A stretch of DNA of 64,000 bases, from positions 18,905-82,904 of the IMG/VR virus record IMGVR_UViG_3300035670_007376, one strand, 5' to 3'. Below are positions 11,897 to 30,517 of the stretch, piece after piece; the stretch's first letter is position 1; every line of letters starts with the position of its first letter. The DNA is from a virus. Its lineage: Duplodnaviria > Heunggongvirae > Uroviricota > Caudoviricetes. A program made the translations under genes and the position numbers. Under the pieces are notes generated by a model that saw only the letters and a program-made list of their open reading frames with translations, was not told where the DNA came from and did no database searches.

Positions 11897-12334
11897 ATGA
11901 TATATTGGTTTACAGGTCAACCTGGTGCAGGAAAAACAACATTAGCTAAACACTTAGTAACGTTCCTTTCAAATACGGGTAAGGTCATTCACATTGACGG
12001 AGACGATTTGAGAGACATTTTCCAAAATAAGGATTATTCGGAAAATGGTCGACGTAAAAACATAGAAAGGGCTCAAGATATTGCCCAATTTATGAATGAA
12101 AAGGGTTACGATGTTGTGGTATCTTTAGTGTCACCATATAAAGACCAAAGAGAAGAATTAAAATTAAAAACATCGGTAATTGAAATATTTGTTCATACCT
12201 CAGAAGAACGAGGTCGTGAAAATTTTCATGTCATTAACTACGAAAAACCTGAAGAAAATTTTGTGGAAATGGATACCACAGAAAATTCTGATGTTGAATC
12301 GTTTATTGAATTAATTAGTAAAATAGATTTATGA
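11897..12334 (+). CDS. cysC: adenylyl-sulfate (APS) kinase, short form
   Basis: P-loop GQPGAGKTT, then HIDGDDLRD (CysC LDGDNVR). NGRRKNIERAQDIAQF...VVVSLVSPYKDQRE...IEIFVHTS follow the CysC layout. Confidence 0.65.
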   Translation: MIYWFTGQPGAGKTTLAKHLVTFLSNTGKVIHIDGDDLRDIFQNKDYSENGRRKNIERAQDIAQFMNEKGYDVVVSLVSPYKDQREELKLKTSVIEIFVHTSEERGRENFHVINYEKPEENFVEMDTTENSDVESFIELISKIDL

Positions 12335-12711
12335 GTAAAAAATATGCAATGTACGTGGGTCGTTGGCAAAATTGGCACAAAGGACACGAATGGTTAATTA
12401 GACAACAATTAGACCAAGGTAAAAATGTTTGGGTAGCAATTAGAGACGTTGAAGTGGATGAGAATAATCCCAAAACTGCTAGAGAAGTGTTCGATTCATT
12501 AATCACCGAACCATTCTTTAACGATAATTTTGATAAAATCCTTCTATCGATAATTCCTGATATTGAAAGTATCAATTATGGTAGAGGTGTTGGATATGAT
12601 GTTATTTACCATGAACCGCCGAGTGACATTGCAACAATCAGTGGTACTGCCATCCGTACTGGTCATATGACACCAGATGGTAAAATAAAATATGATGAAA
12701 CGAAAGGGTAA
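12331..12711 (+). CDS. HIGH-motif nucleotidyltransferase (cytidylyltransferase-like: TagD / RfaE-domain-II / NMNAT class)
   Basis: YVGRWQNWHKGHEWL is the (F)xGxFxxxHxGH motif and a C-terminal ISGTAIRTG (ISSTxIR-like) is present. 126 aa, like TagD. Confidence 0.6.
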   Translation: MSKKYAMYVGRWQNWHKGHEWLIRQQLDQGKNVWVAIRDVEVDENNPKTAREVFDSLITEPFFNDNFDKILLSIIPDIESINYGRGVGYDVIYHEPPSDIATISGTAIRTGHMTPDGKIKYDETKG

Positions 12712-12938: not shown

Positions 12939-13392
12939 ATTAAAACTATTATTAAACTTTTTAAGTAAAGAAGAATGTATTAACATCATTAATGGTAGTT
13001 ACAATCTTGAGATTTTAAAGAATAGAATATTACGGGAAATTGAAAAAAATTTTGTAACACAATTTAAAGGTTTTTATATTGGAGACTTTGTTGATTTAAA
13101 AATTGAGAAATATAACACAGAACAAAAATATAAAGATTTTGAAAAGAAAGGGGATGAAACATACGTTTCGTTTTCATTACAATTAAATAGTAACTACGAA
13201 GATGGTTTTTTTCAGTTTTTAGTTGATGATGGAAATAGATACTTCCAAGTCCATCATGGTTTGGGACATCTCATTTTATATTTTTCTGACTTACCAAAAA
13301 GGACTACTCCGGTTACAAATGGGACTAAGTACACGTTGGTTGGGTCGTTACCATTAATTAAAAAAACTAATAATAAAAACACACTTTTATAA
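12910..13392 (+). CDS. P4H-like 2OG-Fe(II) oxygenase paralog with degenerate motifs
   Basis: It shares the N-terminal LSKEECINIING motif and the middle block VSFSLQLNSNYEDGFFQF with ORF 13392 (TTVIFQLNDEYEDGEIKY). The HxD motif is not evident. Confidence 0.4.
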   Translation: MDLEEVKNRKLKLLLNFLSKEECINIINGSYNLEILKNRILREIEKNFVTQFKGFYIGDFVDLKIEKYNTEQKYKDFEKKGDETYVSFSLQLNSNYEDGFFQFLVDDGNRYFQVHHGLGHLILYFSDLPKRTTPVTNGTKYTLVGSLPLIKKTNNKNTLL

Positions 13393-13961
13393 TGTTTCAC
13401 AAATTAATTGAAGATTATTTAACACCTGACGAATGTAATTTCATTATCAATATGGGTAAATCGATTGGGTTACATAAGATGACTTCAGCAAAATTTGTTA
13501 ACGGAATTTACGCCGAAACATCGTTAAATGAAGACACCAATAAAAGAAAGGGGTGTTATTTTGTTGAGAATGATTTGAATAAACCCCAAATAAAAATAAT
13601 ATCCGAAAGGATTGTAAAAACCTTAAATGATTTAAAAATTTTTAACGGATTAGTTTATCATACAATCCCTAAGTACTCCTTTAATGAGTATACTGAAGAT
13701 GATTTTTTAGATTGGCATTCGGATTCACATGAAATATTATATGGTGCATCAACTACTGTTATTTTTCAATTAAATGACGAATATGAAGATGGTGAAATCA
13801 AGTATTTAATTGAAGGTATTGAATATTCGGTACCAAAGAAATGTGGTAGTATCTTTATTTTCGACTCTAATATCCCACATTCAGTTGATAAAATAAAATC
13901 GGGTATTAGATATTCATTAAACGTTTGGCCATCATCAAAGAAAAAAACAAATTTACTATGA
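13392..13961 (+). CDS. prolyl-4-hydroxylase-like 2OG-Fe(II) oxygenase
   Basis: HSDSHE (HxD), PHSV (second His) and RYSLNVW (Arg) are in P4Hc order. N-terminal LTPDECNFIIN. Confidence 0.6.
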   Translation: MFHKLIEDYLTPDECNFIINMGKSIGLHKMTSAKFVNGIYAETSLNEDTNKRKGCYFVENDLNKPQIKIISERIVKTLNDLKIFNGLVYHTIPKYSFNEYTEDDFLDWHSDSHEILYGASTTVIFQLNDEYEDGEIKYLIEGIEYSVPKKCGSIFIFDSNIPHSVDKIKSGIRYSLNVWPSSKKKTNLL

Positions 13962-15202
13962 AAAAAATTGTAATTGTTGGTGGAGGTACTGCTGGTTGGT
14001 TAACATCATTAGTGGTAAATAAATTTTGGAAAAACACCACAATCACTATTGTGGAGAGTTCTAAAATTGGAATATTGGGAGCAGGAGAAGGTGGTACCTC
14101 CAACTTCGGTAAAATGTTATCATTATTAGACATTAATCAAAACGAATTTTTTGAGAAAACTAAATCAACTGTAAAAGGTGGATTGCATCTTTATAATTGG
14201 ACTGGTAAAAATGAACTATCTAAACATCTATTTTTTGGTGATAATCCAAATGAAACTAATAAATCTTACGCATACCATTTTGATGCTCGATTAGTTGCGA
14301 AATATTTTAAAGAAATTGCATTGAGTAGAGGGGTTGAATGGATTGACGGAGAAGTTGATGAAATTAAAAAAGAAAATGATAAAATTACCGAATTACATTT
14401 AAAAGATAACAGAGTAATAGAATTAGACTTTGTTTTTGACTGTAGTGGGTTTTCTAAAATCATAGTAGATGGTATACATAAAGAAGAATGGATTAGTTAT
14501 ACCAAATATCTTATGATGAACAAAGCGATTGTTTTCTTTTTACCGCAAGAAAATGAGTATAAATTAAATGACAAAACTTATACCGAAATGTTATCCATGG
14601 ATTGTGGTTGGATGTTTAAAATCCCATTGCAACATAGGTGGGGATGTGGGTACGTATTTAATGATAAGTATTTAACTGTGGAAGATGCAAAGAAAGAAGT
14701 GGAAAACCATTTAGGTCAAGAGGTTATATTACAAAACGTCTTTAATTTTAATCCTGGAACACATAAAAGAAGTTGGATTAGTAATAGTATATCGATAGGG
14801 TTATCATACGGTTTCATTGAACCTTTAGAGGCAACATCGTTGATGTCAACAATAATGCAACTAAAGAAATTAATTGATATTAATTTCGACGAGGGTAATA
14901 TGGACAAATACAATAATTGGTGTTATCAAATAAACGAACAGAATTTAAACTTTATAAGGTATCACTATTTGTGTGAAAGAGACGACACTCAATTTTGGAG
15001 AGACTGTACATCGATGCCGATACCTAACAAATTAAAAAAAATACTCGATAAAAACAATTCAATCATTGCCAAGAATGATGTGGAGTTACTAAAATTATTC
15101 GAATTAGAAGACATTACACCAAACGAACTTACATTTTTTGTGAAGAATTATTTGACAATATTTAAAAAGAATAAAAAATCGAACAAAAAAGAATTGATAT
15201 AA
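13958..15202 (+). CDS. flavin-dependent (tryptophan-type) halogenase
   Basis: MKKIVIVGGGTAGW...ILGAGEGGTSNF matches the PrnA/RebH N-terminus. The conserved Lys lies in STVKGGLHLYNW. GWMFKIPL is a WxWxIP variant with the second W replaced by F. The track start at 13925 is a TTG. The ATG at 13958 overlaps the upstream stop as ATGA. Confidence 0.7.
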   Translation: MKKIVIVGGGTAGWLTSLVVNKFWKNTTITIVESSKIGILGAGEGGTSNFGKMLSLLDINQNEFFEKTKSTVKGGLHLYNWTGKNELSKHLFFGDNPNETNKSYAYHFDARLVAKYFKEIALSRGVEWIDGEVDEIKKENDKITELHLKDNRVIELDFVFDCSGFSKIIVDGIHKEEWISYTKYLMMNKAIVFFLPQENEYKLNDKTYTEMLSMDCGWMFKIPLQHRWGCGYVFNDKYLTVEDAKKEVENHLGQEVILQNVFNFNPGTHKRSWISNSISIGLSYGFIEPLEATSLMSTIMQLKKLIDINFDEGNMDKYNNWCYQINEQNLNFIRYHYLCERDDTQFWRDCTSMPIPNKLKKILDKNNSIIAKNDVELLKLFELEDITPNELTFFVKNYLTIFKKNKKSNKKELI

Positions 15203-15203: not shown

Positions 15204-15854
15204 ATGGAAAAAATGTATTTCGACGATAATACTTACATTTGGAAAACCAAACTAAATCTAAGTCATTTAAAAGAAAAAATTGTTTTAGAAGCAAAGGATG
15301 TGATTGATTCACAACCAGATATAAAGACGGATGGGTTTGCTTATAAAAAAGAAGATAAAAACATTAATTTTATGGGTGAAGTTACAATTAAAAATAATTT
15401 AGATGAGATTGTACAAACCGGTATAAATTTATGTAAAGAATTATATGAGGAAACAAAAACACCCTATAATAGAATAAACACCGATGCGTGGGTTAACGTA
15501 GTACGTTCAAAAAATCCTGTACAGTTACAGTTTAGACACGAAGAATTAAAACACGTTGATAAGTACCATGTACATACAGTCATTAATAAAGAAATGAATT
15601 CCTTCGTACCACACTATACATATGTTTATTATATACAGATGCCTAATATTATGGATGGGGACGACGGTGTGTTATATTTTAAAAATGAAAACAATGACGA
15701 ATTTTGGATTAGACCTGAGGAGGATGATTTAATAATAATGGAAGCAACTATGCCACATGCACCAAATAATGCACCACTGTCAACAAATGATAGAATTGTT
15801 ATGGCTGGTAATGTTGGGTTTGAGTATATCAAAAAAGAAAAATCATTAATATAA
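15204..15854 (+). CDS. 2OG-Fe(II) oxygenase-like cupin (TIGR02466-type)
   Basis: DGVLYFKNENNDEFWIRPEEDDLIIMEATMPHAPNN...DRIVMAGNVGF fits the G.l.F.dP...i.P..G.lvlFPs.l.H.V...eRISISFN pattern. Confidence 0.45.
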   Translation: MEKMYFDDNTYIWKTKLNLSHLKEKIVLEAKDVIDSQPDIKTDGFAYKKEDKNINFMGEVTIKNNLDEIVQTGINLCKELYEETKTPYNRINTDAWVNVVRSKNPVQLQFRHEELKHVDKYHVHTVINKEMNSFVPHYTYVYYIQMPNIMDGDDGVLYFKNENNDEFWIRPEEDDLIIMEATMPHAPNNAPLSTNDRIVMAGNVGFEYIKKEKSLI

Positions 15855-16645
15855 TGTTAATAGATAATAAATTCATTTATTTAAGTTTACCAAGATGTGC
15901 ATCCACGTCATTTCATTATTCTTGTATCTTAAATAATTTAGACGTTAAAACTTGTGATGACGGTTGGACAAAAGAGAATAGTAATATTGACTTCACCAAA
16001 ATAAATAAAGTTGATATAATGAATTACATCTACCATGGACATGAAAGTTTGACTGATTTACAGTTAAAATTTGGTTCAGAATTTCCAATTATTGCGGTTA
16101 GAAGAGAAAGACATGAAAGGTTCTTTTCACTTTATAAACATATTTTATCAGATTTTAAAAGATTTGGTTTAGATGATTTTTATGATTTATTTTCTAAATT
16201 AACAGTAGATGAATTGTTTTTCTTTACTAAAAATGACCTATTAACCAAAAAATCAATTTGGACAAAAATTTTCACTTTTTTAGTCGATAGAGGATTGTTT
16301 GATAAAAACATGACAATGGATAAGGTGATTGCACCAATGAAGAAAAGGGGTGACTACTACAGACAAGATAAAAACCTCTATATAATCAACATATTAGAAA
16401 TCCTACTAACCCCAATATCAACATTAACAAACAATAGTAATAAAATTATTTGGTTTGACTTCAATAGAATGGGTGAAATGGAAGAATGGGTTTCAAATAT
16501 TACACGTAAACCGTTTAAGTTAGAATCTGTGAATTCAAGTAAACACATTGAATGTAGAATTGAGTTTAATGATGAATTTATTATGAAATACGATGAGATT
16601 TATGATTTTTATGATTTACAAAAAGAAAAAATAACACTAATATAA
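15854..16645 (+). CDS. sulfotransferase-like protein
   Basis: 5'-PSB-like LSLPRCASTSFHY and a 3'-PB-like VRRERHERFFSLY (R...S). Confidence 0.45.
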   Translation: MLIDNKFIYLSLPRCASTSFHYSCILNNLDVKTCDDGWTKENSNIDFTKINKVDIMNYIYHGHESLTDLQLKFGSEFPIIAVRRERHERFFSLYKHILSDFKRFGLDDFYDLFSKLTVDELFFFTKNDLLTKKSIWTKIFTFLVDRGLFDKNMTMDKVIAPMKKRGDYYRQDKNLYIINILEILLTPISTLTNNSNKIIWFDFNRMGEMEEWVSNITRKPFKLESVNSSKHIECRIEFNDEFIMKYDEIYDFYDLQKEKITLI

Positions 16646-16713: not shown

Positions 16714-18210
16714 ATGAAAGGAACAATTATTGGTACCGATTTATTAGAGAAGGGAGACTCAGTAAAAATACTGGAAATCAACACAAACACAACGATTTAT
16801 AATTCTGGTGCAGATATGTTAGATTATGACACATTTTTTTCGGTTTTAACTGGAAATAACATAACAGAATTACATTTTATATATACGGAGAGTTCCTCAC
16901 ACACACCATTACCAAGTGAATTTAGATTTGAGAGAAGATTGATTGATAAATGTACCGAACTAAACATTACATATTATCCATATTTGGTACCTAGAAATTC
17001 AGTTACTGTTCCATATATCGAAGATTCTTCGAATAAGTTCATATTGAGACAATCTTTTGATACTACGGCATTAGTTGACGAAACATATTGTGCTGACAAA
17101 TTTGAGTTTTTCAAATTAATGAGTGGGTCGACTTATGTTCCAAATACATTCTTTAATTCGACAGGTATTAACATGGACACTCTATCAACGATTGACACAT
17201 CTAACACAGGACACCCAAACATTATAAAAAAACACAGATATCCACTATACGAACCAATGGATTATCCTGAGATTTATGTCTTAAATGATAATCAAGAATT
17301 AACGGACTTAAAGTCAAATAACAATCCCGAATCAAATAACTTAATACAAGAATTTATTTATGATGATGCAAATCTTGTAGATGGTAGATACAGTATAATA
17401 AGAAGTATTGATATTATTTATGGACCAACCTTAGATGTAATCAATTTGGGTGGATATCGACAATCAACAATTATCCCGTTATCTTTTACTGAAAACGAAT
17501 TCGTGGAAAACACTAATAAAATAAATCAAAAAACTAGATACAAATATATCACAAAAGAACTTGGTAATTTCTCAACAATAAATTATCACGTAGATGATGA
17601 TACCATGATTTTAAATTATGATGGTACATTAATAGATGTTGATACAATACAATTGGGTAATTTTATTAAATCAATTAATTTTCAAGATAATAATGGGAAT
17701 AATGCTGGAGACTTCCAAGAAGAAATACTTTCCGTATATGGATGGGATGGAACAATTGAAAAAACAAACGAAACATTGGAAGTGCTACAATCAGAATTAT
17801 TAGGAAAAACATCTGCGAATGTTGACACTATCTTTATAAGAATAACTCTATCAAACGGATTAACATGGAATGATTCACCAAGTTGTAAATATTATATTGA
17901 GGAATCGGGTTCTACATATACTAGATTTGAAAAAGTTAATAACATGGTTATTGGTGATAAATTAGTTGTAACCGATTCACAAACAAACCAACTAACAACT
18001 GTTGAAATAACTGGTTTAGAAATGGAATATGCGGTTAAAACAATTTATGACTTGGATTTTGAACCGTCTGATTTATTTTTAGTGGATATTGGTGATGGAT
18101 TGTTTGGTGTGATGCATAACTCATGTTGGTGTCCATGGAATTATTGTGGTTATTATTGTAATTCGTGGTATTGCCCTTCATGTTCAGGAGGAGGAATTCC
18201 AAAATTCTAA
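16714..18210 (+). CDS. hypothetical protein with Hint/intein-C-like terminus and 28-aa Cys-rich tail
   Basis: The C-terminus ...TIYDLDFEPSDLFLVDIGDGLFGVMHN|SCWCPWNYCGYYCNSWYCPSCSGGGIPKF resembles intein block F/G (vYDleVe..hnF.angilvHN followed by Cys/Ser). An upstream SCKYYIEESG...GDKLVV resembles block A. Confidence 0.5.
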   Translation: MKGTIIGTDLLEKGDSVKILEINTNTTIYNSGADMLDYDTFFSVLTGNNITELHFIYTESSSHTPLPSEFRFERRLIDKCTELNITYYPYLVPRNSVTVPYIEDSSNKFILRQSFDTTALVDETYCADKFEFFKLMSGSTYVPNTFFNSTGINMDTLSTIDTSNTGHPNIIKKHRYPLYEPMDYPEIYVLNDNQELTDLKSNNNPESNNLIQEFIYDDANLVDGRYSIIRSIDIIYGPTLDVINLGGYRQSTIIPLSFTENEFVENTNKINQKTRYKYITKELGNFSTINYHVDDDTMILNYDGTLIDVDTIQLGNFIKSINFQDNNGNNAGDFQEEILSVYGWDGTIEKTNETLEVLQSELLGKTSANVDTIFIRITLSNGLTWNDSPSCKYYIEESGSTYTRFEKVNNMVIGDKLVVTDSQTNQLTTVEITGLEMEYAVKTIYDLDFEPSDLFLVDIGDGLFGVMHNSCWCPWNYCGYYCNSWYCPSCSGGGIPKF

Positions 18211-18400
18211 AAAAATAAATAAAATTATATTATTATGGCACAAAGAGAAAGAATAGAAAGACCGGCGCAAACAATAAAAACGATAGTTGCTCCGATAACG
18301 TCGAATACTAAATTAAAAATTTCAACCGCAATACAAGTTGTTGTTGATAAAATAAAAGAAAAACATCTCGGATAAAATGTAAAAAAAATTCTTTTATATT

Positions 18401-18967
18401 GTGAATTATATCATAAACAATAATTTTTGTGATAAAGAGCAAGCCAATAAAATAATTGATTTTTGTATTAAATTTGGTGAACCCTTTTCATATGTTCCAA
18501 CGGAAAGTTGGGATTGTAGAAGGGTTTATGATAATAAATTTAAAGAGGAGATTATTAATTTATTGGTAGATAAGTATAGAAACGGTGATTTTAAATTATG
18601 GTTCGACTATAACACATTCAATCTAAAGAATTTCAATATTAGTTTAACGTCATATTATGACGGGAGATATCTTAATTTACATAAAGATAAAACAAGTGAA
18701 TTGACAACCGTTATTGTTTTATCTGAAGATTTTGAAGGTGGAAATTTTGTATTAACTGAAGACAAAAATCCACCTTTTCATTTTGAGACATTATCGGGTT
18801 TAACTTTATGTGATTTGAAACTCGGAGACTCCATTTCATTTAATGGTAGTGAAACGTACCATGGAGTTTTACCAGTAACTAAAGGAAAAAGAATTGCTCT
18901 AAACATATGGATGACCGAAACTGATTTTAACTACCCAAAAATTAAAAAAACTGAAACATTATTATGA
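18401..18967 (+). CDS. prolyl-4-hydroxylase-like 2OG-Fe(II) oxygenase
   Basis: LHKDKT (HxD), ETYHGV (His) and RIALNIW (Arg). The start is a GTG at 18401 and the 5' end is uncertain. Confidence 0.55.
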   Translation: MNYIINNNFCDKEQANKIIDFCIKFGEPFSYVPTESWDCRRVYDNKFKEEIINLLVDKYRNGDFKLWFDYNTFNLKNFNISLTSYYDGRYLNLHKDKTSELTTVIVLSEDFEGGNFVLTEDKNPPFHFETLSGLTLCDLKLGDSISFNGSETYHGVLPVTKGKRIALNIWMTETDFNYPKIKKTETLL

Positions 18968-19479
18968 GAATATTAATTATCTCATTACCAAGAACAGGTT
19001 CAACCTCCTTATTAAATAAGATTTCCAAAGAAAAAAAATTACAACCCCTATTTGAACCTTTTGATGGTTCTGGAAGAACACTATATTCGGATGATTTAAA
19101 GAATATCGTTCTAAAAACAATTGTATGTGAACAACACCCCAAAGACGTCGACAACTATATGGAGTGGATTACAAATTTTTCCAAAACATTTGATGAGGTG
19201 ATTTTATTGTCAAGAAAAGATTTAATTGCATGTGCTGAAAGTCATTCATATTGTGTCTTTAATAAAAGTAAAGGATTTACTTCATATAATAATTATTTGT
19301 GGGAAAAAACACCAATCGATGAAATTTGTTATAATAATGTAATCAAGTGGGATGGTTTTTTAAAAGAACTATCCATTAAATTAAAGACTCCGATTACATA
19401 TTATGAAGACATTTATGATATTAATAGTGAGGAAAGATTAAGAAAAGGTAATAAACCATCTAATCTAAATTTGATATAA
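18964..19479 (+). CDS. sulfotransferase (Sulfotransfer_3/Stf0-like)
   Basis: MRILIISLPRTGSTSLLNKI (5'-PSB loop) and LLSRKDLIACAES (3'-PB R...S). Confidence 0.6.
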   Translation: MRILIISLPRTGSTSLLNKISKEKKLQPLFEPFDGSGRTLYSDDLKNIVLKTIVCEQHPKDVDNYMEWITNFSKTFDEVILLSRKDLIACAESHSYCVFNKSKGFTSYNNYLWEKTPIDEICYNNVIKWDGFLKELSIKLKTPITYYEDIYDINSEERLRKGNKPSNLNLI

Positions 19480-20126
19480 TGAAAATTGCATTATTAACTT
19501 CCGCCAGAAGTGGGTCAACCAGTTTATTTCATTTATTTGAGGAGATGTTAAATCCACATAATTATATTTGCATTTCTGAACCATTTAACTCTTTTTGGAG
19601 AGTTCCGTCAGGATTGAAATTATATGATACTTCATTTTTTGAAAAAAAAGAAAACATTTTTATCAAAACATTTATCAGCGATTTACAAATACCAAAAGAA
19701 TTTAAAGAGGATAATAATTTATATTGGGATTGGTTTTTTAGTTACTTTGATAAGGTGATTATTTTAGATAGAAAAAATAAAGACTTACAAAGTGAAAGCT
19801 TAACATATCATTTAAAAAGTAAAGATTTCTATAGTTGGCAAAAAAAACAATTTTACGATTTATCTAAAATAGAAAAAGAGGAAATTGAAAATAATAAAAA
19901 TATTTTAATACAAGAATCAAAAAAGAAATACCTTTTTTCACAAAGAGGATATCCTCTCTACTATTTTGAGGATTTATTCATTAATAAAAACATGGAAATA
20001 ATTGAAAGTTTGTTTAACTATTTAAATTTAGAACCAAAAAAAGACCTCATTGAAAAATACATAATTTCCGATTCATTTAAAATTAGAATTAACAGCAACG
20101 ACGAACGATTCAAATCTATTATATAG
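19479..20126 (+). CDS. sulfotransferase (tandem paralog)
   Basis: MKIALLTSARSGSTSLFHLF and ILDRKNKDLQSES. Same architecture as ORF 18964. Confidence 0.6.
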   Translation: MKIALLTSARSGSTSLFHLFEEMLNPHNYICISEPFNSFWRVPSGLKLYDTSFFEKKENIFIKTFISDLQIPKEFKEDNNLYWDWFFSYFDKVIILDRKNKDLQSESLTYHLKSKDFYSWQKKQFYDLSKIEKEEIENNKNILIQESKKKYLFSQRGYPLYYFEDLFINKNMEIIESLFNYLNLEPKKDLIEKYIISDSFKIRINSNDERFKSII

Positions 20127-20815
20127 TGGCGTCCAAAATTAAAAATATTGAACTTCTTTACAAAGTGTTTGGTGACAATGCAAAACATATTCTAAATAAA
20201 TTAGATAAAGAAAAAATTAATATATCACAAAGGTCGTCTAATTTTGTTTTAAAAGTTTCAAATTTAATTTCCAATTACGTTGATTTTATCCACGCAGGAG
20301 ATTTTTCATCTGTCAATGATAAAACAATTAACACAATTCAACAAGAATATGATGAATGGTTTAACTATAATAAAATAAACTATTCAAATATAACTAATTC
20401 GAACCAAGGAACTGTATTATTTGATTATCGAGAAAATGATATAGGTTATTATTGGGTTAATCTTAATACACATTACAGTGTTGACATGATGTTTAATATG
20501 AATAACTGTGGTAGAGTTGGAGTTGAACAAAATTTAGTTTTATTAAGAGAACAAAAGAATACTAAGGAAAATTTAATGCACGTTTTAATTGTTATAAGTA
20601 ATGACAATTTTATTGTACAAATAAAAGGAGTAGAAAATAGTAAACCAAACAATTTTTACGAACATATTTTCGATTTCCTATTAAAATATGAACCAATAAA
20701 CGGGTTTAAAGGAGTTTTCAATCCTAAAAATGATTTTTCACTATTGGATTTGAAAAGAGAAGATGTTGATGAATTAAAAAAGGTTAAACCACACTTATTT
20801 CAAAAAATAATATGA
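20126..20815 (+). CDS. hypothetical protein
   Basis: 229-aa ORF. Its GTG start overlaps the upstream stop. Confidence 0.4.
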   Translation: MASKIKNIELLYKVFGDNAKHILNKLDKEKINISQRSSNFVLKVSNLISNYVDFIHAGDFSSVNDKTINTIQQEYDEWFNYNKINYSNITNSNQGTVLFDYRENDIGYYWVNLNTHYSVDMMFNMNNCGRVGVEQNLVLLREQKNTKENLMHVLIVISNDNFIVQIKGVENSKPNNFYEHIFDFLLKYEPINGFKGVFNPKNDFSLLDLKREDVDELKKVKPHLFQKII

Positions 20816-21195
20816 CATATAGAATCGTTAAGACCAATAAAAAAGGTATGTCATTATTTAGTGAAATAAACTTAGAAAGTGGAAGTTTAATCGGGGAATA
20901 TATTTCAAGAACACCTAACAATATAGGTAAGAATATTATGGATTCGGGGTTATGGGAAAGTGAAATTTGTAGGTACGTTAACCATAGTTTTAACCCTAAC
21001 AGTGAGATATTTTTTGAGGGGGATGTTTGGAATCTATATTCAAAATCAAATATTAGTATTGGAGATGAAATTGTTGTTGACTATGTTGTTGTTGCATTAA
21101 AACTTGAATTACCTGAAAATATCTTTTATAACAAAAATTTTATTGAATTTAATCTAACCAATTTCGGTGAAATCTTACCCACAAAGTTGATTTAA
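20812..21195 (+). CDS. SET-domain protein (vSET-like lysine methyltransferase)
   Basis: RYVNHSFNPN matches the NHSCxPN motif and ISIGDEIVVDY matches GEELtxdY. The N-terminal KKGMSLFSEINLESGSLIGEY is the GrGlfA...G..I.EY region. 127 aa, like chlorovirus vSET. Confidence 0.65.
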   Translation: MTYRIVKTNKKGMSLFSEINLESGSLIGEYISRTPNNIGKNIMDSGLWESEICRYVNHSFNPNSEIFFEGDVWNLYSKSNISIGDEIVVDYVVVALKLELPENIFYNKNFIEFNLTNFGEILPTKLI

Positions 21196-21222: not shown

Positions 21223-23940
21223 ATGAAGATATTAGCCCACGCACCGTTTATTGGAACAACAGGATACGCCAATCATGCACGTTCATTTTTTTGTGCATTA
21301 AACAAATATCATACCGTAAAAGTTCGTAATCTAACCATTGGTAATAGTTGGAAGGGAATGAATAATCGTCCACATGACGGAGAACCATATTTCACGGATG
21401 AAATTGGTGACATGTTAATTTTACAGACACTATACAATCAAGACGGGTCTAGAAACGACCATAATATGTACGATTATAAAGGTGACTTTGTTCCCGACGT
21501 CCATATTATCTTAATGGAGACCAATAATCATTATTTCTATGAAGAATATGAAGGTTATAAAATTGCATACAATGTATGGGAATCAACAAGATATCCTGAT
21601 GAATTCTTTAAAAGATTATTTTATTTTGACGAAGTTTGGGTACCGACTCAATGGCAATTTGATTGTTTAGTTGAACAAGGTTATCCAAAAGAAAAGATAT
21701 TCATTGTACCTGAAGGTGTGGATATCGAAACCTTTAAACCAATTAAAAAGTTCCCAAAAAGAGAAAAAATACGTTTTGTACATTTTGGTAGATGGGATTA
21801 TAGAAAAGGTACTACAGAAATATTACAAGCATTTGCAGAAGAATTTAAAGATGTTGACGATGTCGAACTTCTGGCATCAGTTGAAAACCCATATCCATAC
21901 GATGGAATGAACTCAACCGAAGAAAGAGTTAAACATTATGGTATCGATACCAAGAATATCAAGTTTCTAAATTTCCCATCAAGAGAAGAATATGTAAATT
22001 ATTTACAAACCGCACACGTATTTGTTTCGTGTGCTCGAAGTGAGGGATGGAATTTACCTCTAATTGAGGCAATGGCGTGTGGAACACCTTCAATATACTC
22101 AGATTGGGGAGGTCAACTACAATTTGCCGAAGGTAAAGGTGTTCCGGTTCAAATTAAAGGATTGAGACCCGCAAACATTGAACATAAGGAGTGGCCGGGT
22201 GAATATTGTGAACCGGACTGGGATGATTTGAAGAGACAGATGAGACAAGCGTATGATTACAATACTGCGATGTGGATAAAAGCAGTCGGAGACTCTAAAG
22301 ATATTCACGAAAAATTCAATTGGGATTCGATTGCTAAAGGTGCGTGTGAAATTTTGGAAAGAAACAAGAAACCATTTGCATTTGTGACAACAGGTAATTT
22401 AGGTTATATGCCCGTAATTGAAAAATTGGTACAATCATTACTAGAATTTTCAGAACAAAAGATTATAGTTTACGGTGTAGATTGTGATGTACCTTTCGAT
22501 TACCCCAATGTAATCAAACGAAGAATTGACCCACCAAAAATATCTGAACACGATAAGTGGTATTGGAAACAATATGCTTGTTTAGAATCACTAAATGAAG
22601 GATTTGAATATCTGATATGGATTGATGGTGATGTGGTTGTGAATCATAATATTGATACTGTTAGAAAATATTTTAATAAAGTAGGTAGATATCCGTTGTC
22701 AGATATTCATGTCCAAGAAGAATTCTTTGGGATGTATGATAATGGAAATAAATCACAATTATTCAACGAAGAACTTGCCAAAAAATGGGGAATAGAAAAG
22801 GGTCAACCATACATGCATATTTGTTTCTTTGTTTATAATAACGGTTCAAAATCACACTTCCTACAAATATTAACAGAATACCGAACGTTAATAAAGGAAA
22901 ACCCTAAAGATTACAGTAAGTATTTTTTATGGAACGATGAAGGTATTGATAATGCATTGAGATGGGTTAATGGTTATACTAATCATTTACCACTATCAAA
23001 TTTTGATACATCATCTTATGACGGTGATGAGGGATTTATTGATAAAACATTACATCAGTTTTATAAATTTTGGAACGAAGAGGGACCACAAAACTTTAAT
23101 AGAATATTCGGATACCAATACATACCGAAAGATAAATCACAAATCATTTATTTTCACGGAAATAAAAACGCGGAGATTTCAGATAAAATGATTGAATTTA
23201 TAAAAATGCAACGAGATAAATCGTTCTATAAATCTAAGTCATTTTACACTGACGTTTATAAAATAGAAAAATTTGATGATTTATATGAATACGAAGGTAG
23301 TACAATGCAAGTTGCAGAAAAATTTGGTTGGGCACCTGCGATATTCCATGAAATTTACAACCTTAGAGATTATTACAAAGATAGAGAAAAAAGAATACAT
23401 GAAGGGGACACCGTAGTAGATTTAGGTGGAAACATCGGAATCTTCAACAGATGGGCTTATAGTGAGGGTGCAAGTAGAGTAATATCATTTGAACCTGATA
23501 GAAGATACTTTAAACTATTATCATTAAACGCTGACCCACGTTCAATTCTTTTTAATGGTGCGATGTCTAATTCTGTTGGTGAGATAAGATTACACGAAAC
23601 CGAACATTTAGGTGGGTCCACAATATTAGGTGATAGTGATGATGGTTATTTAGTTAGAACATATACGTTAGATTATCTTTTTGAAAGTGGGTTAATTGAC
23701 AAGATTGATTTCTTAAAAGTGGACATTGAGGGTGCTGAACATTATGCAATCCAAGGAATAAGTGATGAAAACTTAATGAAGGTTAAAACAATATCAATGG
23801 AATACCATCACAGTCATTTTAACTACGATGAAACACTAAGACAAAATTTAATAGACAGAATGTTAAAATTAGGATTCAATTCTTATTTAATGTTTATGGG
23901 TTCAAATAATGCATTACAAATGTTATATTTCACAAGATGA
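21223..23940 (+). CDS. three-domain glycan-modifying enzyme: GT4 glycosyltransferase + GT-A-like domain + FkbM-family methyltransferase
   Basis: N-terminal third has SEGWNLPLIEAMACGTPSIYSD (GT4 EX7E region). The middle has a DxD-type domain (YLIWIDGDVVV). The C-terminus has VVDLGGNIGIF...VISFEPD...LKVDIEGAEHYAI (FkbM/Methyltransf_21). Confidence 0.65.
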   Translation: MKILAHAPFIGTTGYANHARSFFCALNKYHTVKVRNLTIGNSWKGMNNRPHDGEPYFTDEIGDMLILQTLYNQDGSRNDHNMYDYKGDFVPDVHIILMETNNHYFYEEYEGYKIAYNVWESTRYPDEFFKRLFYFDEVWVPTQWQFDCLVEQGYPKEKIFIVPEGVDIETFKPIKKFPKREKIRFVHFGRWDYRKGTTEILQAFAEEFKDVDDVELLASVENPYPYDGMNSTEERVKHYGIDTKNIKFLNFPSREEYVNYLQTAHVFVSCARSEGWNLPLIEAMACGTPSIYSDWGGQLQFAEGKGVPVQIKGLRPANIEHKEWPGEYCEPDWDDLKRQMRQAYDYNTAMWIKAVGDSKDIHEKFNWDSIAKGACEILERNKKPFAFVTTGNLGYMPVIEKLVQSLLEFSEQKIIVYGVDCDVPFDYPNVIKRRIDPPKISEHDKWYWKQYACLESLNEGFEYLIWIDGDVVVNHNIDTVRKYFNKVGRYPLSDIHVQEEFFGMYDNGNKSQLFNEELAKKWGIEKGQPYMHICFFVYNNGSKSHFLQILTEYRTLIKENPKDYSKYFLWNDEGIDNALRWVNGYTNHLPLSNFDTSSYDGDEGFIDKTLHQFYKFWNEEGPQNFNRIFGYQYIPKDKSQIIYFHGNKNAEISDKMIEFIKMQRDKSFYKSKSFYTDVYKIEKFDDLYEYEGSTMQVAEKFGWAPAIFHEIYNLRDYYKDREKRIHEGDTVVDLGGNIGIFNRWAYSEGASRVISFEPDRRYFKLLSLNADPRSILFNGAMSNSVGEIRLHETEHLGGSTILGDSDDGYLVRTYTLDYLFESGLIDKIDFLKVDIEGAEHYAIQGISDENLMKVKTISMEYHHSHFNYDETLRQNLIDRMLKLGFNSYLMFMGSNNALQMLYFTR

Positions 23941-26728: not shown

Positions 26729-26793
26729 GTCCTAGATAATTAGATACTTAAATACAATTGACGAGTATTTATATGGTATAATATAATATCTAG

Positions 26794-28830
26794 ATGAAAA
26801 TATTTGAACCATTTATTACGGGGTCTATTTCAGTATCTGGGTCGGCACATATCCAAGGTGATTTAACCGTTTTGGGGACGATAAATGCGACAATTAGTGG
26901 TACAACTTCCAATGCTATCAGTGCGTCATATGCGTCTAATGCAGATACAATAGACGGCATCGATTCTTCAAGATTGGCAACGACAGGTAGTAACACTTTT
27001 AGTGATGACCAAATTGTTACCGGCTCTATTAAGATTGATGGTGACTTATACATAAACGGAACACAGTATACAGCTGCAAGTTCCGGTACTTCAGGTACTT
27101 CAGGTACGTCAGGAACATCCGGTTCTTCGGGTAGTTCGGGTTCTTCAGGAACATCGGGTTCAAGTGGAACAAGTGGAACTTCTGGTTCTGATGGTTCTTC
27201 GGGAACAAGTGGAACATCAGGTTCTAGTGGTTCTTCGGGAAGCTCGGGTTCAGATGGTTCTTCAGGTACCTCGGGTTCATCAGGAACTAGTGGAACATCA
27301 GGTTCTAGTGGTTCTTCGGGTAGCTCAGGTTCATCAGGTAGTTCGGGGTCTAATGGTTCATCAGGAACATCAGGTAGTTCAGGAACAAGTGGAAGTTCAG
27401 GTACCTCAGGTTCATCGGGGTCTAGTGGCTCATCAGGGACATCAGGTTCTTCGGGAAGTTCAGGAACATCGGGTAGCTCAGGGTCTAGTGGGTCTTCAGG
27501 AACTTCTGGTACGTCAGGTAGTTCAGGAACATCTGGTTCTTCAGGAAGTTCAGGGAGTAGTGGAAGTTCAGGAACATCCGGCACTTCAGGAAGTTCAGGT
27601 TCTAGCGGTTCTTCGGGAACAGTAACATTATCGGGTACAACCGATAATGGTGTATTAACACTTAACGGGTCCTCACCAAATGTAACCGCAGAATCTAATT
27701 TAACATTTGACGGTACAACATTAACTGTTACGGGTGATATTTTAATAACTAATAATTTATTAGTCCAAGGTTCAACAACAAGTTTACAGGTTAATAATTT
27801 ATTAATTGAAGATAAATTAATAACATTAGCGAGTGGGTCAGCAACAGCGGCCGCCGCTAATGGCGCGGGTATCGAAGTGGTGGGACCGACAACGGCTGCC
27901 ACGATGACGTATGTTAATACCGATGATAGTTGGAATTTTAATAAGAAAGTTAATGTTCCATCACTAACCATCAATGGTACATCTTATTCTGCTGCCACTT
28001 CAGGTACATCGGGAACATCGGGTTCATCAGGTAGTTCGGGTTCATCGGGTACATCAGGTTCTAGTGGTTCAAGTGGTACTTCAGGAAGTAGTGGAACGTC
28101 TGGTAGTTCAGGTTCCAGTGGTTCGAGTGGTACCTCGGGTTCTAGTGGTTCTTCAGGAACTTCTGGTTCATCAGGTAGTTCAGGAAGTAGTGGAACTTCT
28201 GGTTCTTCAGGTTCTTCAGGAAGTAGTGGAACTTCAGGTTCCTCGGGAAGTTCCGGTTCATCGGGAACATCGGGGTCTAGTGGTAGTTCGGGAAGTAGTG
28301 GAACATCAGGGTCATCAGGAAGTTCTGGTTCATCAGGTAGTTCAGGTACAACAACGATAACAAATGCCGCTGAGGATAGAGTAATGACGAGTACAGGTGG
28401 TGTAGGGTTAAATGGTGAGGCTAACTTCACATTTAATGGTACCACCGCATACATTGCAGGAGCATTAGGTGTTGGAACTAATACCCCAACAACAACAGGT
28501 TTGATTAGAGCAACCAATGACGTTATTGCATATTATGGTTCAGATAGTAGATTAAAAGAAAATGTGACACCAATTTCAAACCCTATTGAGAAGATTCAAC
28601 AAATAGGTGGTTATGAATACGATTGGATTCCGATGGAAGGTATTCACGAAAATGAAGGACATGACATTGGGGTAATAGCACAGGAAATTGAATCAATATT
28701 ACCTGAAATCGTAACAACAAGGGAGAATGGTTACAAAGCGGTTAAATACGAAAGATTAGTTGCTTTACTTATCGAATGTGTTAAAGACCAACAAAAACAA
28801 ATAGATGAATTAAAATCTAAATTACAATAA
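26794..28830 (+). CDS. collagen-like (Gly-Ser/Thr-Ser)n tail-fibre protein with C-terminal peptidase-S74 intramolecular chaperone domain
   Basis: Two blocks of about 180 and 115 G-S/T-S triplets. The C-terminus SDSRLKENVTPI...GGYEYDWIP...GVIAQEIESILPEIV...YERLVALLIECVKDQQKQIDELKSKLQ is the S74 auto-processing chaperone domain. A terminator lies immediately downstream. Confidence 0.85.
   Translation: MKIFEPFITGSISVSGSAHIQGDLTVLGTINATISGTTSNAISASYASNADTIDGIDSSRLATTGSNTFSDDQIVTGSIKIDGDLYINGTQYTAASSGTSGTSGTSGTSGSSGSSGSSGTSGSSGTSGTSGSDGSSGTSGTSGSSGSSGSSGSDGSSGTSGSSGTSGTSGSSGSSGSSGSSGSSGSNGSSGTSGSSGTSGSSGTSGSSGSSGSSGTSGSSGSSGTSGSSGSSGSSGTSGTSGSSGTSGSSGSSGSSGSSGTSGTSGSSGSSGSSGTVTLSGTTDNGVLTLNGSSPNVTAESNLTFDGTTLTVTGDILITNNLLVQGSTTSLQVNNLLIEDKLITLASGSATAAAANGAGIEVVGPTTAATMTYVNTDDSWNFNKKVNVPSLTINGTSYSAATSGTSGTSGSSGSSGSSGTSGSSGSSGTSGSSGTSGSSGSSGSSGTSGSSGSSGTSGSSGSSGSSGTSGSSGSSGSSGTSGSSGSSGSSGTSGSSGSSGSSGTSGSSGSSGSSGSSGTTTITNAAEDRVMTSTGGVGLNGEANFTFNGTTAYIAGALGVGTNTPTTTGLIRATNDVIAYYGSDSRLKENVTPISNPIEKIQQIGGYEYDWIPMEGIHENEGHDIGVIAQEIESILPEIVTTRENGYKAVKYERLVALLIECVKDQQKQIDELKSKLQ
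27085..27621 (+). repeat. tandem 9-nt (GGN-WCN-WCN) coding repeat block 1, encoding (G-S/T-S)n
   Basis: Periodic GGT/GGA-ACT/TCT/AGT-TCA/TCG triplets of triplets. GC-richer than the surroundings. Confidence 0.85.
28003..28350 (+). repeat. tandem 9-nt coding repeat block 2, encoding (G-S/T-S)n
   Basis: Same degenerate repeat unit as block 1. Confidence 0.85.
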
Positions 28831-28833: not shown

Positions 28834-28862
28834 AAAGGGACTCAATTGAGTCCCTTTTTTAT
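28834..28862. terminator. bidirectional rho-independent terminator shared by convergent genes
   Basis: Perfect palindrome AAAGGGACTCAA|TTGAGTCCCTTT followed by TTTTTT on + and a T-rich tract on -. The minus-gene stop codon lies within the stem. Confidence 0.8.
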
Positions 28863-29957: not shown

Positions 29958-30517
29958 CTTAATGAATTGTATATCGATAAAACTTTATCGATAAATTTTT
30001 TATTTTGTGACTTATCATAACACTCAATTGCAAAATAACCGTCAGCTTCATATGTTGGTAACATCCATCTCGATTCACCAATAATATCAACAGACACTAA
30101 AAAATTATGACTATCTATTTTTTGTAATTTAACTTGGTCCCCTTTTAACCTTATTATGCCGTTTTTTAATGATTGTTTAAAATGTATAAAATCATTATCT
30201 AAATTTTTAACATTTTCCCAGAAATCTTTGTGCATCGAAGTATCATCATCATTAAAATAAACATACCCTTCTTTCACTAAATCTAATGCGTAATTTCTTT
30301 GGGAATTACCAAATTTACTTTTACTATTTCTATGTAAATACGTTTCACAATTTTCAGGTATAAGTTCTTTTTCGGGTAACTCATCTAAATCAAATACAAC
30401 AATCCATCGATAATTTTCTTTAGGAATGTTAATACTTTCACTTATTTTATGTAGATTTTTCGGTCTACTACACGGGGTTATAATATTGATATACATGTTT
30501 AAACTCTTTTTATCCAA
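29954..30517 (-). CDS. GT-A-fold glycosyltransferase-like protein
   Basis: MYINIITPCSRPKNLHKISESI...WIVVFD resembles the GT2/GT-A N-terminal core. Confidence 0.4.
   Translation of the reverse strand: MDKKSLNMYINIITPCSRPKNLHKISESINIPKENYRWIVVFDLDELPEKELIPENCETYLHRNSKSKFGNSQRNYALDLVKEGYVYFNDDDTSMHKDFWENVKNLDNDFIHFKQSLKNGIIRLKGDQVKLQKIDSHNFLVSVDIIGESRWMLPTYEADGYFAIECYDKSQNKKFIDKVLSIYNSLR

Follow-up and report, generated by a model that had tools for sequence, protein, structure and literature searches.

Divergent families of putative sulfotransferases encoded in a glycosyltransferase-rich island of an uncultured large-phage lineage

Can a phage carry its own enzymes for sulfation and, if so, what would they sulfate, and where would the sulfate donor come from? 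These questions are raised by three genes, all on the + strand, in a stretch of 64,000 nucleotides of a tailed phage (IMG/VR record IMGVR_UViG_3300035670_007376, positions 18,905 to 82,904), hereafter the window. ORF A (18964..19479, 171 aa, starting MRILIISLPRTGSTSLL) and ORF B (19479..20126, 215 aa, starting MKIALLTSARSGSTSLF) are the short and the long members of one superfamily, and the stop of the former overlaps the start of the latter. ORF C (15854..16645, 263 aa, containing LSLPRCASTSF and IIAVRRERHERFFSLYKH) belongs to a second, distantly related family of sulfotransferase fold. The motifs from which the initial annotation read these three genes as sulfotransferases are indeed there. 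We conclude that ORFs A, B, and C are probably PAPS-dependent sulfotransferases of two divergent and hitherto unannotated families, common in an abundant uncultured lineage of large phages. This reading is based on sequence homology, conserved motifs, fold prediction, and the linkage of genes, from which we infer that PAPS is bound, that sulfate transfer is catalysed, how the donor is supplied, and what the acceptors may be.

The three genes lie in an island of many glycosyltransferases and sugar-nucleotide enzymes that adjoins tail-fibre genes. Directly 5′ of ORF A is a 2OG-Fe(II) oxygenase (18401..18967, +; Pfam PF13640, E = 1e-8; present in 54 of 77 related loci), the stop of which overlaps the start of ORF A. 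Directly 5′ of ORF C is a 2OG-Fe(II) oxygenase-like gene (15204..15854, +; phrog_81, E = 8e-10; 45 of the 77 loci). A phage origin of the DNA agrees with the content of the window, which has genes for thymidylate synthase, for DNA methyltransferases, for a peptidase or endolysin, and for the distal subunit of a long tail fibre; in addition, 75 related loci come from IMG/VR viral contigs. A search of the window for tRNA genes found none. Among 50,697 GenBank phage records there are no matches to positions 15000-21500 (blastn), nor to ORF B, ORF C, and a 627-aa neighbour (tblastn). The SPFH protein of the window is 43-50% identical, no more, to its matches in crAss-like and Lak phages.

ORFs A and B share 33% identity over 172 columns (BLASTP, E = 9e-13) and, judging from this similarity, are true but ancient paralogs. 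Both types have orthologs in other contigs, at 55-78% identity; for ORF A, about 30 related viral loci contain orthologs that are 44-64% identical. Intact members of the short A-type subfamily (165-178 aa) are widespread. The description of tandem paralogs therefore holds for A and B; it fails for ORF C, which had been taken for a third paralog and has no pairwise similarity with ORF B (E = 0.18). Nor is the supposed expansion of paralogs recent: the A-type and B-type are old subfamilies, and only 16 of the 77 loci have at least two copies. At 46.7-49.2 kb lie four ORFs of 109 aa; considered as possible paralogs, they proved unrelated.

The sulfotransferase affinity of these genes is not visible in direct searches. 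The initial annotation had proposed a comparison with PF00685, PF13469, and PF09037, and had held that the lack of any sulfotransferase profile match would speak against it. Taken literally, it fails at this point, because A, B, and C have no direct match to these models, nor to any sulfotransferase model when scanned against Pfam, NCBIfam, and PHROG up to E = 1. It takes divergent relatives, profiles, and structure to reveal the link. A published warning states that current seeds under-detect non-animal sulfotransferases (PMC11625862). The 78 close homologs of ORF B are all labelled hypothetical and none has a Pfam domain; in narrow family alignments, weak sulfotransferase matches appear in only 2 of the 31 B-family members and in none of the 26 of the ORF C family, and comparing the B-family profile with PDB sequences gave a MurE-like ligase, weak and spurious. 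The A/B superfamily as a whole contains at least 679 clusters, and we aligned 132 of its sequences, each recruited by the A/B family profile at E = 1.3e-16 or better. When these are scanned individually, the only Pfam families that recur are sulfotransferases: Sulfotransfer_1 (11 members, best E = 1.8e-5), Sulfotransfer_3 (11, best 4.8e-5), Sulfotransfer_4 (7, best 4.8e-6), and Stf0 (2, best 1e-4). These matches are weak (E between 1e-4 and 5e-6), and generic P-loop models have one match each. The superfamily profile compared with PDB sequences gives sulfotransferases for all of its top six matches, including NodH (E = 0.002), CurM-ST (0.006), OLS-ST, SULT1C2, and SULT1B1, and the alignment spans three motifs in the correct order.

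The first of these motifs is the putative 5′-phosphosulfate-binding (PSB) loop, PRTGSTSL in ORF A (residues 9-16, 18988..19011, +) and ARSGSTSL in ORF B (residues 9-16, 19503..19526, +), which in ORF B aligns with LARSGSSHL of NodH and SPRSGSTLL of CurM-ST. The second is the putative 3′-phosphate-binding (PB) motif, R98...S107 in ORF B (19770..19799, +), aligned with IILERENKLASYSS of NodH; mapping it by alignment places its counterpart in ORF A at R84...S93 (19213..19242, +). The third is a sulfotransferase-type motif of the form YED[LI], Y162-F163-E164-D165 in ORF B (19962..19973, +), which aligns with IRYEDL of CurM-ST and FLFYEDI of SULT1C2. The motifs are no chance resemblance: in the 132 sequences the loop R10 is conserved at 99%, G12 at 92%, R98 and S107 at 100%, and, in the third motif, Y at 98%, E164 at 100%, and D at 91%. 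Strand-loop-helix and strand-turn-helix elements define sulfotransferases (PMC11625862), and AlphaFold2 models of ORFs B and C place the conserved residues in just these elements. In the model of ORF B (pLDDT 88.5; the models are confident, around 88) the PSB loop lies between strand 2-7 and helix 13-27, and the PB motif at the junction of strand 92-97 and helix 101-114. The loop, for which a conserved Lys or Arg and a Gly are described (PMC11625862), reads PR10TG12STS in A, AR10SG12STS in B, and PR14CAS17T18S in C, in each case between a predicted strand and helix; all three also have the PB element, with a Ser on the helix following the Arg. The predicted folds are alpha/beta, with a central parallel sheet, and can be superimposed on solved sulfotransferases.

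Among known enzymes the closest to A and B is NodH, the rhizobial Nod-factor and LPS sulfotransferase (Sulfotransfer_3; PDB 9vki), which is the best PDB match of the superfamily profile. NodH has the same Arg-type RxG loop, a Glu at the position of E34 of ORF B, and the same R-x8-S spacing in the PB motif. NodH itself is found by PF13469 only, on account of this RXG loop (PMC11625862). It is longer than A and B (264 aa; A has 171 and B 215); unlike it, these two are phage-encoded, lack a significant direct match to PF13469, and come with an APS kinase of the phage. Stf0, the mycobacterial trehalose 2-sulfotransferase (PF09037; PDB 1tex), is likewise a small bacterial carbohydrate sulfotransferase with an Arg in the PSB loop; ORF B matches it in Foldseek with E = 7e-4 and TMq of 0.51-0.53, and the superfamily members matching its Pfam family are the two mentioned above. 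The comparison with Stf0 and Sulfotransfer_3 made in the initial annotation is apt for A and B, given the loop and the Pfam, PDB, and fold matches. Next in rank by sequence come the sulfotransferase domains of CurM and OLS (PDB 4gbm and 4gox), whose PSB loop SPRSGSTLL, Glu at the position of E34, and C-terminal YEDL followed by a helix all align. These are domains of PKS megasynthases acting on ACP-bound beta-hydroxyacyl chains, whereas A and B are stand-alone proteins without PKS context.

ORF C has the same two nucleotide-binding elements in a different setting. Its family contains at least 382 clusters, and in an alignment of 26 sequences P13, R14, S17, T18, R84, and S92 are invariant. The putative PSB loop PRCASTS (residues 13-19, 15890..15910, +) lies between strand 7-9 and helix 17-26, and the putative PB motif R84-E-R-H-E-R-F-F-S92 (16103..16129, +) at the junction of strand 79-83 and helix 86-103. 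The latter resembles the PxxRxxS consensus given for PF03567 (PMC11625862), with R86 at the position where the Pro is expected, and the loop has Arg instead of Lys. No member of the family (0 of 26) matches PF03567 or PF00685; the likeness to Sulfotransfer_2 is structural only, and ORF C does not belong to PF03567. In structure ORF C is more like heparan-sulfate sulfotransferases (NDST1, 1nst; 3-OST-5, 3bd9; HS2ST, 3f5f; HS6ST, 5t03); these have 11-16% sequence identity with ORF C and Lys in the PSB loop, and are Golgi membrane proteins, whereas ORF C is cytoplasmic and phage-encoded. Comparing the narrow ORF C family profile with PDB sequences gave a histidine kinase and a HAD hydrolase, both weak and spurious. 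The relation to A and B becomes apparent once the A/B alignment is broadened: hhalign of the broad superfamily against the ORF C family gives a probability of 78% (E = 1.7e-5) over 96 columns that begin at the P-loop and reach the R...S motif, with S92 of C on S107 of B, whereas the narrow B family aligns over 12 P-loop columns only (probability 5%). Linked to A/B at the profile level only, ORF C represents a family of its own that has the fold in common with them, and it did not arise by recent duplication.

If these assignments are correct, A and B would be small Arg-type enzymes of the NodH/Stf0/Sulfotransfer_3 kind, in which the N-terminal strand-loop-helix (R10 and G12-S13-T14-S15) would grip the 5′-phosphosulfate, the strand-turn-helix (R98...S107) the 3′-phosphate, and the Y-E-D motif would pack onto the adenosine. 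In-line sulfuryl transfer would follow once the acceptor hydroxyl is deprotonated by E34 or E164, both acidic and conserved. E34 is conserved at 95% and aligned to the Glu of NodH and CurM-ST, E164 is invariant, and from the alignment both are candidates for the catalytic base; in ORF C the candidates are H61, H63, H96, or E64. ORF C would have the same PAPS-binding core on a scaffold nearest to the carbohydrate sulfotransferases of the heparan-sulfate type.

Glycine-rich loops also occur in P-loop kinases and NTPases, and A, B, and C might be relatives of NMP or shikimate kinases with a loop that merely resembles a PSB loop. Foldseek with the ORF B model gives SULT1B1, estrogen sulfotransferase, and Stf0 as top matches (E from 9e-5 to 7e-4) with NMP kinases interspersed; UMP/CMP, adenylate, and shikimate kinases score almost as well as sulfotransferases, and TM scores are only about 0.45-0.53. 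The motifs lead us to reject a kinase identity, which we regard as highly improbable. The Walker A motif GxxxxGK[ST] is present in none of the 132 superfamily members and in none of the 26 of the ORF C family, which speaks against P-loops of unrelated kinases, the alternative that the initial annotation had named. The superfamily loop is R-x-G-[ST]-[ST]-[ST], without the Walker A lysine, and the invariant R...S and the YED motif, both characteristic of sulfotransferases, align with NodH, CurM-ST, and SULTs. There are 31 sulfotransferase matches in Pfam against 2 generic P-loop ones; ORF C aligns structurally over 150-167 residues with sulfotransferases and over only 90-115 with kinases; and the one real kinase considered here, the APS kinase of the window, has by contrast a canonical GAGKTT loop. 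It is also very unlikely that one or more of the three proteins is catalytically dead and serves as a PAP(S)-binding regulator, a PAP sink, or a structural or virion component. Such a role would agree with the fact that no residue could be fixed as the catalytic base and that ORF A is about 45 residues shorter than ORF B at the C-terminus. Against it stands the purifying conservation of the PAPS-binding and catalytic residues, all of which are kept in ORF A, as is every residue conserved across the superfamily (R10, G12, S13, T14, S15, E31, P32, K51, R84, E92, S93, Y146-Y147-E148-D149, and R160), in a short form that is itself intact and widespread.

Sulfation need not be the final modification. 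In decarboxylative chain termination of the CurM-ST type, and likewise in retinol dehydratase, sulfate is a leaving group, and A, B, and C might sulfate small molecules or peptides for transient activation during tailoring. The rank of CurM-ST and OLS among the matches of the superfamily profile points in this direction, as do the presence of retinol dehydratase and of the strigolactone enzyme LGS1 (sulfation-assisted ring formation) among the fold matches and a neighbourhood that, with its halogenase and its several 2OG oxygenases, resembles secondary metabolism. Still, we consider this unlikely. The best match of all is NodH, a true decorating carbohydrate sulfotransferase; PKS, thioesterase, and other partner domains are absent nearby; and three enzymes with a dedicated APS kinase suggest that sulfation is stoichiometric.

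The case for PAPS-dependent sulfotransferases is strengthened by this APS kinase, which the initial annotation had overlooked, as it shares their co-directional island. The gene (11897..12334, +, 145 aa) matches Pfam PF01583 with E = 1.9e-19 (70.6 bits, for a cut-off of 21.1), and all 21 of its PDB matches are APS kinases or PAPS synthases. Its Walker A motif GQPGAGKTT, DGDDLR, and VSPY align with those of solved APS kinases; the lid region seems shortened in comparison with that of CysC. Of the 38 related loci in which 9 kb or more precede the A/B gene, 25 have a co-directional APS kinase, and in six loci a single small gene separates it from the A/B homolog that follows; in about one-third of the adequately covered loci none is detected within 10 kb. 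The kinase would probably supply PAPS, making it from APS of the host or possibly of ORF126, a minimal nucleotidyltransferase (HxGH/ISGTxxR) of 126 aa that adjoins it (12331..12711, +). ORF126 occurs in 41 of the 77 loci with 56-88% identity and fills the space that separates the A/B gene from the APS kinase, contiguously in L030 and, judging from the spacing, in L018, L027, L034, L038, and L042. The kinase matches the kinase domains of PAPSS1 and PAPSS2 (E around 1e-9), and its being directly followed by a gene of the nucleotidyltransferase superfamily gives the kinase-then-transferase order of metazoan PAPSS, a bifunctional PAPS synthase (e.g., PDB 1x6v). Unlike the sulfurylase of PAPS synthase, ORF126 has only 126 aa and is nearest to NMN adenylyltransferases (profile E = 1e-5; CTP_transf_like matches 19 of the 21 members weakly). 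A large homology search returned close orthologs only, a few of them labelled phosphopantetheine adenylyltransferase, and homology singles out none among NMNAT, PPAT, sugar-phosphate nucleotidyltransferase, and ATP sulfurylase. No recognisable ATP sulfurylase was found in the window, and that ORF126 forms APS is speculative.

Which acceptors might be sulfated? For A and B our leading guess is a glycan on the virion or on the surface of the infected cell, because they travel with the APS kinase module in a glycosyltransferase-rich island beside tail-fibre genes. ORF C may instead act on a peptide, since it travels with a Trp halogenase-like flavoenzyme (13925..15202, +; Pfam PF04820, E = 1e-88), a 2OG oxygenase, and ORF498 (16714..18210, +). 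With the A/B family, too, ORF498 is linked more tightly than any other gene (66 of the 77 loci). It encodes an N-terminal domain of no assigned family, a Hint (intein-like) domain, and a 29-aa tail, SCWCPWNYCGYYCNSWYCPSCSGGGIPKF (18121..18207, +), with 6 Cys, 4 Tyr, and 3 Trp. The Pfam scan of ORF498 itself has no direct match; PT-HINT, Intein_splicing, and Hint are matched by 3 of the 34 family members (E from 1e-11 to 1e-14), and the family profile matches the KlbA intein (2jmz, E = 8.4e-7). The Hint domain ends in H468-N469, invariant in the family; after this pair come [STGA]-Cys and a tail that is Cys-rich and hypervariable. The terminal His-Asn followed by Ser/Thr/Cys is also found in PT-HINT autoprocessing domains; these differ in that the module to be released is a toxin domain and not, as predicted here, a peptide of about 29 aa rich in Cys, Trp, and Tyr.

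From Hint chemistry, the tail is predicted to be released by Asn cyclisation. Cleavage between N469 and S470 would free the peptide, which would be halogenated, hydroxylated by the 2OG oxygenases, and then O-sulfated by ORF C, with A and B perhaps contributing, at Tyr, Ser, or Thr residues, to give a RiPP-like product or a decorated component of the virion. This would replace the glycan part of our interpretation and leaves the identity of the enzymes as sulfotransferases unaffected; we consider it a tentative possibility, below even chances. We compared ORF498 tails across 55 loci. The ORF C gene accompanies 26 of 28 Trp-containing tails and 1 of 9 others (p = 1e-5), the halogenase 22 of 28 and 1 of 9 (p = 6e-4), both without correction for shared ancestry; this co-variation may be an effect of lineage. 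Also in favour of a peptide are a SET domain gene among the neighbours and a radical-SAM/SPASM gene in the related locus L002. However, A/B homologs and the APS kinase are kept where the ORF498 homolog is tailless (L024, L034, and L042), and the presence of the kinase is independent of the type of tail (p = 0.46, shared ancestry likewise uncorrected). The tails of L026, L029, and L032 have Tyr and lack Trp, and ORF C is absent there. An N-terminal Hint nucleophile (Cys or Ser), which splicing would need for the N-S acyl shift, was not found in ORF498, and the abundance of glycosyltransferases and sugar-nucleotide enzymes in the island favours a glycan. We give still less credence to the full scheme, doubtful as a whole, of a jumbo-phage lineage with a self-contained sulfation pathway (ORF126 as sulfate adenylyltransferase, the APS kinase, and three sulfotransferases) in which a Trp halogenase and 2OG oxygenases tailor the self-cleaved ORF498 peptide into a sulfated and halogenated RiPP-like product.

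The initial annotation called carbohydrate sulfation rare in phages. Sulfotransferase-family genes are uncommon in marine phages, and a literature search for phrases on phage sulfotransferases gave no match, but such genes are already reported: Sulfotransfer_3 is known in marine phages, the OM43 phage MVGs and Synechococcus phage S-SRM01, as auxiliary genes with a role described as unclear (PMC10580990). Those genes are recognised directly by PF13469, unlike the A/B and C families, and they differ from the window, where three genes occur together with an APS kinase. The island thus offers a concrete system for the role of phage sulfotransferases, with three enzymes, an APS kinase to supply the donor, and two candidate classes of acceptor nearby. 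A/B and C are very probably new divergent families of a known kind of enzyme. As Pfam, NCBIfam, and PHROGs miss two sizeable viral families of the sulfotransferase superfamily, the sulfur-related auxiliary metabolism of viruses is probably under-counted in viromes. If the acceptor is a glycan of the virion or of the cell surface, the phage would direct a sulfation that affects adsorption or superinfection; if it is the peptide released by the Hint domain, viruses would be the source of peptide natural products of a new kind.

ORF A (18964..19479, 171 aa, PRTGSTSL), ORF B (19479..20126, 215 aa, ARSGSTSL), and ORF C (15854..16645, 263 aa, PRCASTS and RRERHERFFS) all lie on the plus strand, with the positions and motifs given in the initial annotation, which regarded A and B as tandem sulfotransferase paralogs and C as a third. 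The paralogy is genuine for A and B (33% identity, E = 9e-13), whereas a pairwise comparison of C with B shows no similarity (E = 0.18). A sulfotransferase profile match had also been expected for each protein, and there is none in Pfam (E up to 1), NCBIfam, or PHROGs; taken alone, the failure of these direct tests would refute the sulfotransferase assignment by the initial annotation's own standard. All close homologs of B (78 clusters) and C (at least 382 clusters) bear the label "hypothetical" and lack a precomputed Pfam domain, and narrow-family profiles matched no sulfotransferase among PDB sequences. Pfam seeds under-detect non-animal sulfotransferases (PMC11625862).

A HMMER search with a profile of the A and B family (A/B) retrieves a superfamily that, clustered at 50%, numbers at least 679 representatives (304 with E ≤ 1e-10). 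Every representative has an N-terminal strand that leads into [PGA]-R-x-G-[ST]-[ST], and G-K-[ST] is absent from all of them. Among 132 members scanned against Pfam, the only families that recur, with weak matches, are those of sulfotransferases (Sulfotransfer_1 in 11, Sulfotransfer_3 in 11, Sulfotransfer_4 in 7, Stf0 in 2), generic P-loop models being matched once each. When the superfamily profile is compared with PDB sequences, the top six matches are all sulfotransferases (including NodH, E = 0.002; CurM-ST, E = 0.006; OLS-ST; SULT1C2; SULT1B1), and three separate motifs align in the expected order, namely the loop, I-l-L-x-R...S, and a C-terminal Y-E-D-[LI]. The positions conserved in the 132 sequences coincide with the sulfotransferase motifs and are all retained in ORF A (in ORF B numbering, R10 99%, G12 92%, E34-P35 95% and 99%, K63 97%, R98 100%, S107 100%, Y163 98%, E164 100%, D165 91%).

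The AlphaFold model of B (pLDDT 88.5) places R10 and G12 in a strand-loop-helix and R98 and S107 in a strand-turn-helix, the two defining elements of the PAPS-binding fold; an arginine in an "RXG" loop is used by NodH and Stf0 (PMC11625862). In Foldseek searches with B, SULT1B1, estrogen sulfotransferase, and Stf0 lead (E from 9e-5 to 7e-4), but UMP/CMP, adenylate, and shikimate kinases follow closely in score, so the fold alone cannot discriminate B from a kinase. The motifs discriminate where the fold does not: Walker A is present in none of the 132 members, and the kinase reading of the A/B P-loops is rejected.

In the family of ORF C, no member matches a sulfotransferase Pfam model, and Foldseek finds nothing significant for C. 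The invariant residues of the family are P13, R14, S17, T18, H61, H63, R84, S92, H96, W200, F201, N227, and S228. An hhalign comparison with the broad A/B superfamily yields an alignment of 96 columns (probability 78%, E = 1.7e-5) that spans the loop through the R...S motif and places S92 of C on S107 of B. ORF C therefore represents another family with this fold, distantly related to A/B, rather than a further copy of them.

The observations are of homology, motifs, predicted fold, and linkage, and A, B, and C quite probably function as sulfotransferases. They would bind PAPS, the sulfate donor, through the Arg-type 5′-phosphosulfate-binding loop and the R...S 3′-phosphate-binding motif, the contacting residues being inferred. 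In-line sulfuryl transfer would then proceed to an acceptor hydroxyl activated by a conserved residue, either acidic or His, the candidates being E34 or E164 in A/B, and H61, H63, H96, or E64 in C.

The phage's own APS kinase (11897..12334, plus strand) would be the source of PAPS. It matches PF01583 (E = 1.9e-19; 70.6 bits, cut-off 21.1) and contains the canonical Walker A GQPGAGKTT, DGDDLR, and VSPY, and each of its 21 PDB matches is an APS kinase or a PAPS synthase. The lid region is apparently shortened. Cultured phages seldom carry such a gene: 50,697 records gave 13 tblastn matches, all weak. Of 38 related loci whose sequence extends 9 kb or more upstream of the A/B gene, 25 have the APS kinase, always co-directional. 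In one of them (L030), carbamoyltransferase, APS kinase, ORF126, and A/B homolog follow each other with stops overlapping starts, and five further loci share its APS kinase-ORF126-A/B spacing. ORF126 (12331..12711, plus strand), directly after the APS kinase, codes for a 126-aa HxGH/ISGTxxR nucleotidyltransferase (GRWQNWHKGH...ISGTAIR). No other island gene is as well conserved as ORF126, which recurs in 41 loci with 56-88% identity and whose family numbers at least 8,000 clusters at the 90% identity level. The ORF126 profile matches NMN adenylyltransferases (E = 1e-5) and, weakly, CTP_transf_like. ATP sulfurylase is a member of the same HxxH nucleotidyltransferase superfamily. Hence, it is conceivable by analogy that ORF126 makes APS, as a candidate minimal sulfate adenylyltransferase.

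The first 30 kb of the window form a modification island. It includes an epimerase/dehydratase, a carbamoyltransferase, and GT2, GT4, GT7C, and GT9-like glycosyltransferases, together with FkbM-type and other methyltransferases, a Trp-halogenase-like enzyme, and a SET domain, and is closed by a tail-fibre gene. Sulfation of a glycan, as the initial annotation proposed, fits this content; given sulfotransferase function, we tentatively favor a glycan acceptor. Four 2OG-Fe(II) oxygenase-like genes lie within 10 kb on the plus strand (8987..9730, 13392..13961, 15204..15854, 18401..18967), two of them directly upstream of sulfotransferase-like genes. A small SET-domain protein (20812..21195, plus strand; PF00856, E = 1e-7), a putative protein lysine methyltransferase, occurs in only two of the 77 related loci. 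It is followed by a 905-aa fusion (21223..23940, plus strand) of an N-terminal GT4 glycosyltransferase, a middle region, and a C-terminal FkbM-type methyltransferase. The tail-fibre gene (26794..28830, plus strand) is collagen-like (Gly-X-Y), with a gp37-like C-terminus and local GC up to 0.39; the antisense ORFs overlapping it (26790..27974 and 27984..28517) are probably artefacts of repeat composition. A minus-strand block (~28840..36630) with GT2 and GT4-like glycosyltransferases and a nucleotide-sugar epimerase breaks the plus-strand layout, and GC skew changes sign across it. In a 217-kb relative (L002, 1..381; NCBI GCA_013573015.1, contig JACCDW011773474.1), this island harbours a single A/B-family copy, along with a radical-SAM/SPASM gene and one that is guanidinoacetate N-methyltransferase-like.

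An alternative acceptor is a protein, such as a peptide derived from ORF498 (16714..18210, plus strand), which is encoded between ORF C and A/B; no other gene is linked so tightly to A/B (66 of 77 loci). ORF498 has a C-terminal Hint/intein-like domain: its profile matches the KlbA intein (E = 8.4e-7), three divergent members match PT-HINT, Intein_splicing, and Hint, and H468-N469 is invariant at the domain end. The hypervariable Cys/Trp/Tyr-rich tail of ~29 aa that follows (18121..18207, plus strand; SCWCPWNYCGYYCNSWYCPSCSGGGIPKF in the window) suggests, by its sequence, a peptide freed by self-cleavage. The N-terminal ~300 aa belong to no recognisable family and have invariant D9, E21, N23, T24, R112, D122, K129, K173, and R230. 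In 37 non-redundant loci, and with Fisher tests that ignore shared ancestry, ORF C accompanies 26 of 28 Trp-containing tails and one of nine others (p = 1e-5), and the Trp halogenase 22 of 28 and one of nine (p = 6e-4), whereas the APS kinase is found with 17 of 28 and four of nine (p = 0.46). Tail-less ORF498 homologs also have A/B homologs as neighbours. These distributions suggest two modules, one of halogenase, oxygenase, ORF C, and ORF498 tail, the other of APS kinase, ORF126, and A/B. The presence of the Trp-halogenase-like gene (13925..15202, plus strand) tracks Trp in the tail, which hints that the phage halogenates peptide Trp. Given sulfotransferase function, an ORF498-derived peptide or another protein is a rather unlikely acceptor, less so for C than for A/B; other acceptors, including a sulfate-as-leaving-group variant, account for the remainder. 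Between ORF498 and the 2OG oxygenase, a 46-aa ORF (MAQRERIERPAQTIKTIVAPITSNTKLKISTAIQVVVDKIKEKHLG; 18235..18375, plus strand) may be a real small protein, since L001 and L002 have a 46-aa gene at the corresponding site.

The window is AT-rich (~30% GC), lacks detectable tRNA genes, and has phage-typical genes: a long-tail-fibre distal subunit match, an M23-type peptidase or endolysin, thymidylate synthase, and three DNA methyltransferases. Neither its DNA (blastn of 15000-21500) nor proteins B, C, and a 627-aa neighbour have a match among 50,697 GenBank phage records. IMG/VR viral contigs (up to 334 kb) yielded 75 related loci, and in metagenomes the lineage is very abundant, its contigs recurring at ~290-350 kb. 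An SPFH/prohibitin-like protein (63079..63993, plus strand) has its best phage matches (43-50% identity) in crAss-like phages and Lak megaphages, which may hint at a Bacteroidota host. A 109-aa ORF (48468..48797, plus strand; GGGCSGLSY...CGCGESF) resembles Fe-S cluster assembly proteins of the IscA/SufA type; a check of three further 109-aa ORFs in the vicinity showed no relation to it. SufA has been reported as an auxiliary gene of OM43 phages (PMC10580990).

A/B resemble the Arg-loop enzymes NodH, Stf0, and CurM-ST, but are smaller and match no curated family model, while C resembles heparan-sulfate-type enzymes in structure only. The kind of enzyme is not new, since marine phages already carry Sulfotransfer_3 genes, with a function described as unclear (PMC10580990), and putative sulfotransferases have been noted in giant viruses (PMC11625862). 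What is new is the existence of two large viral families that current profiles miss, their fixed association with a phage APS kinase, and the link of one of them to a Hint-processed peptide module.
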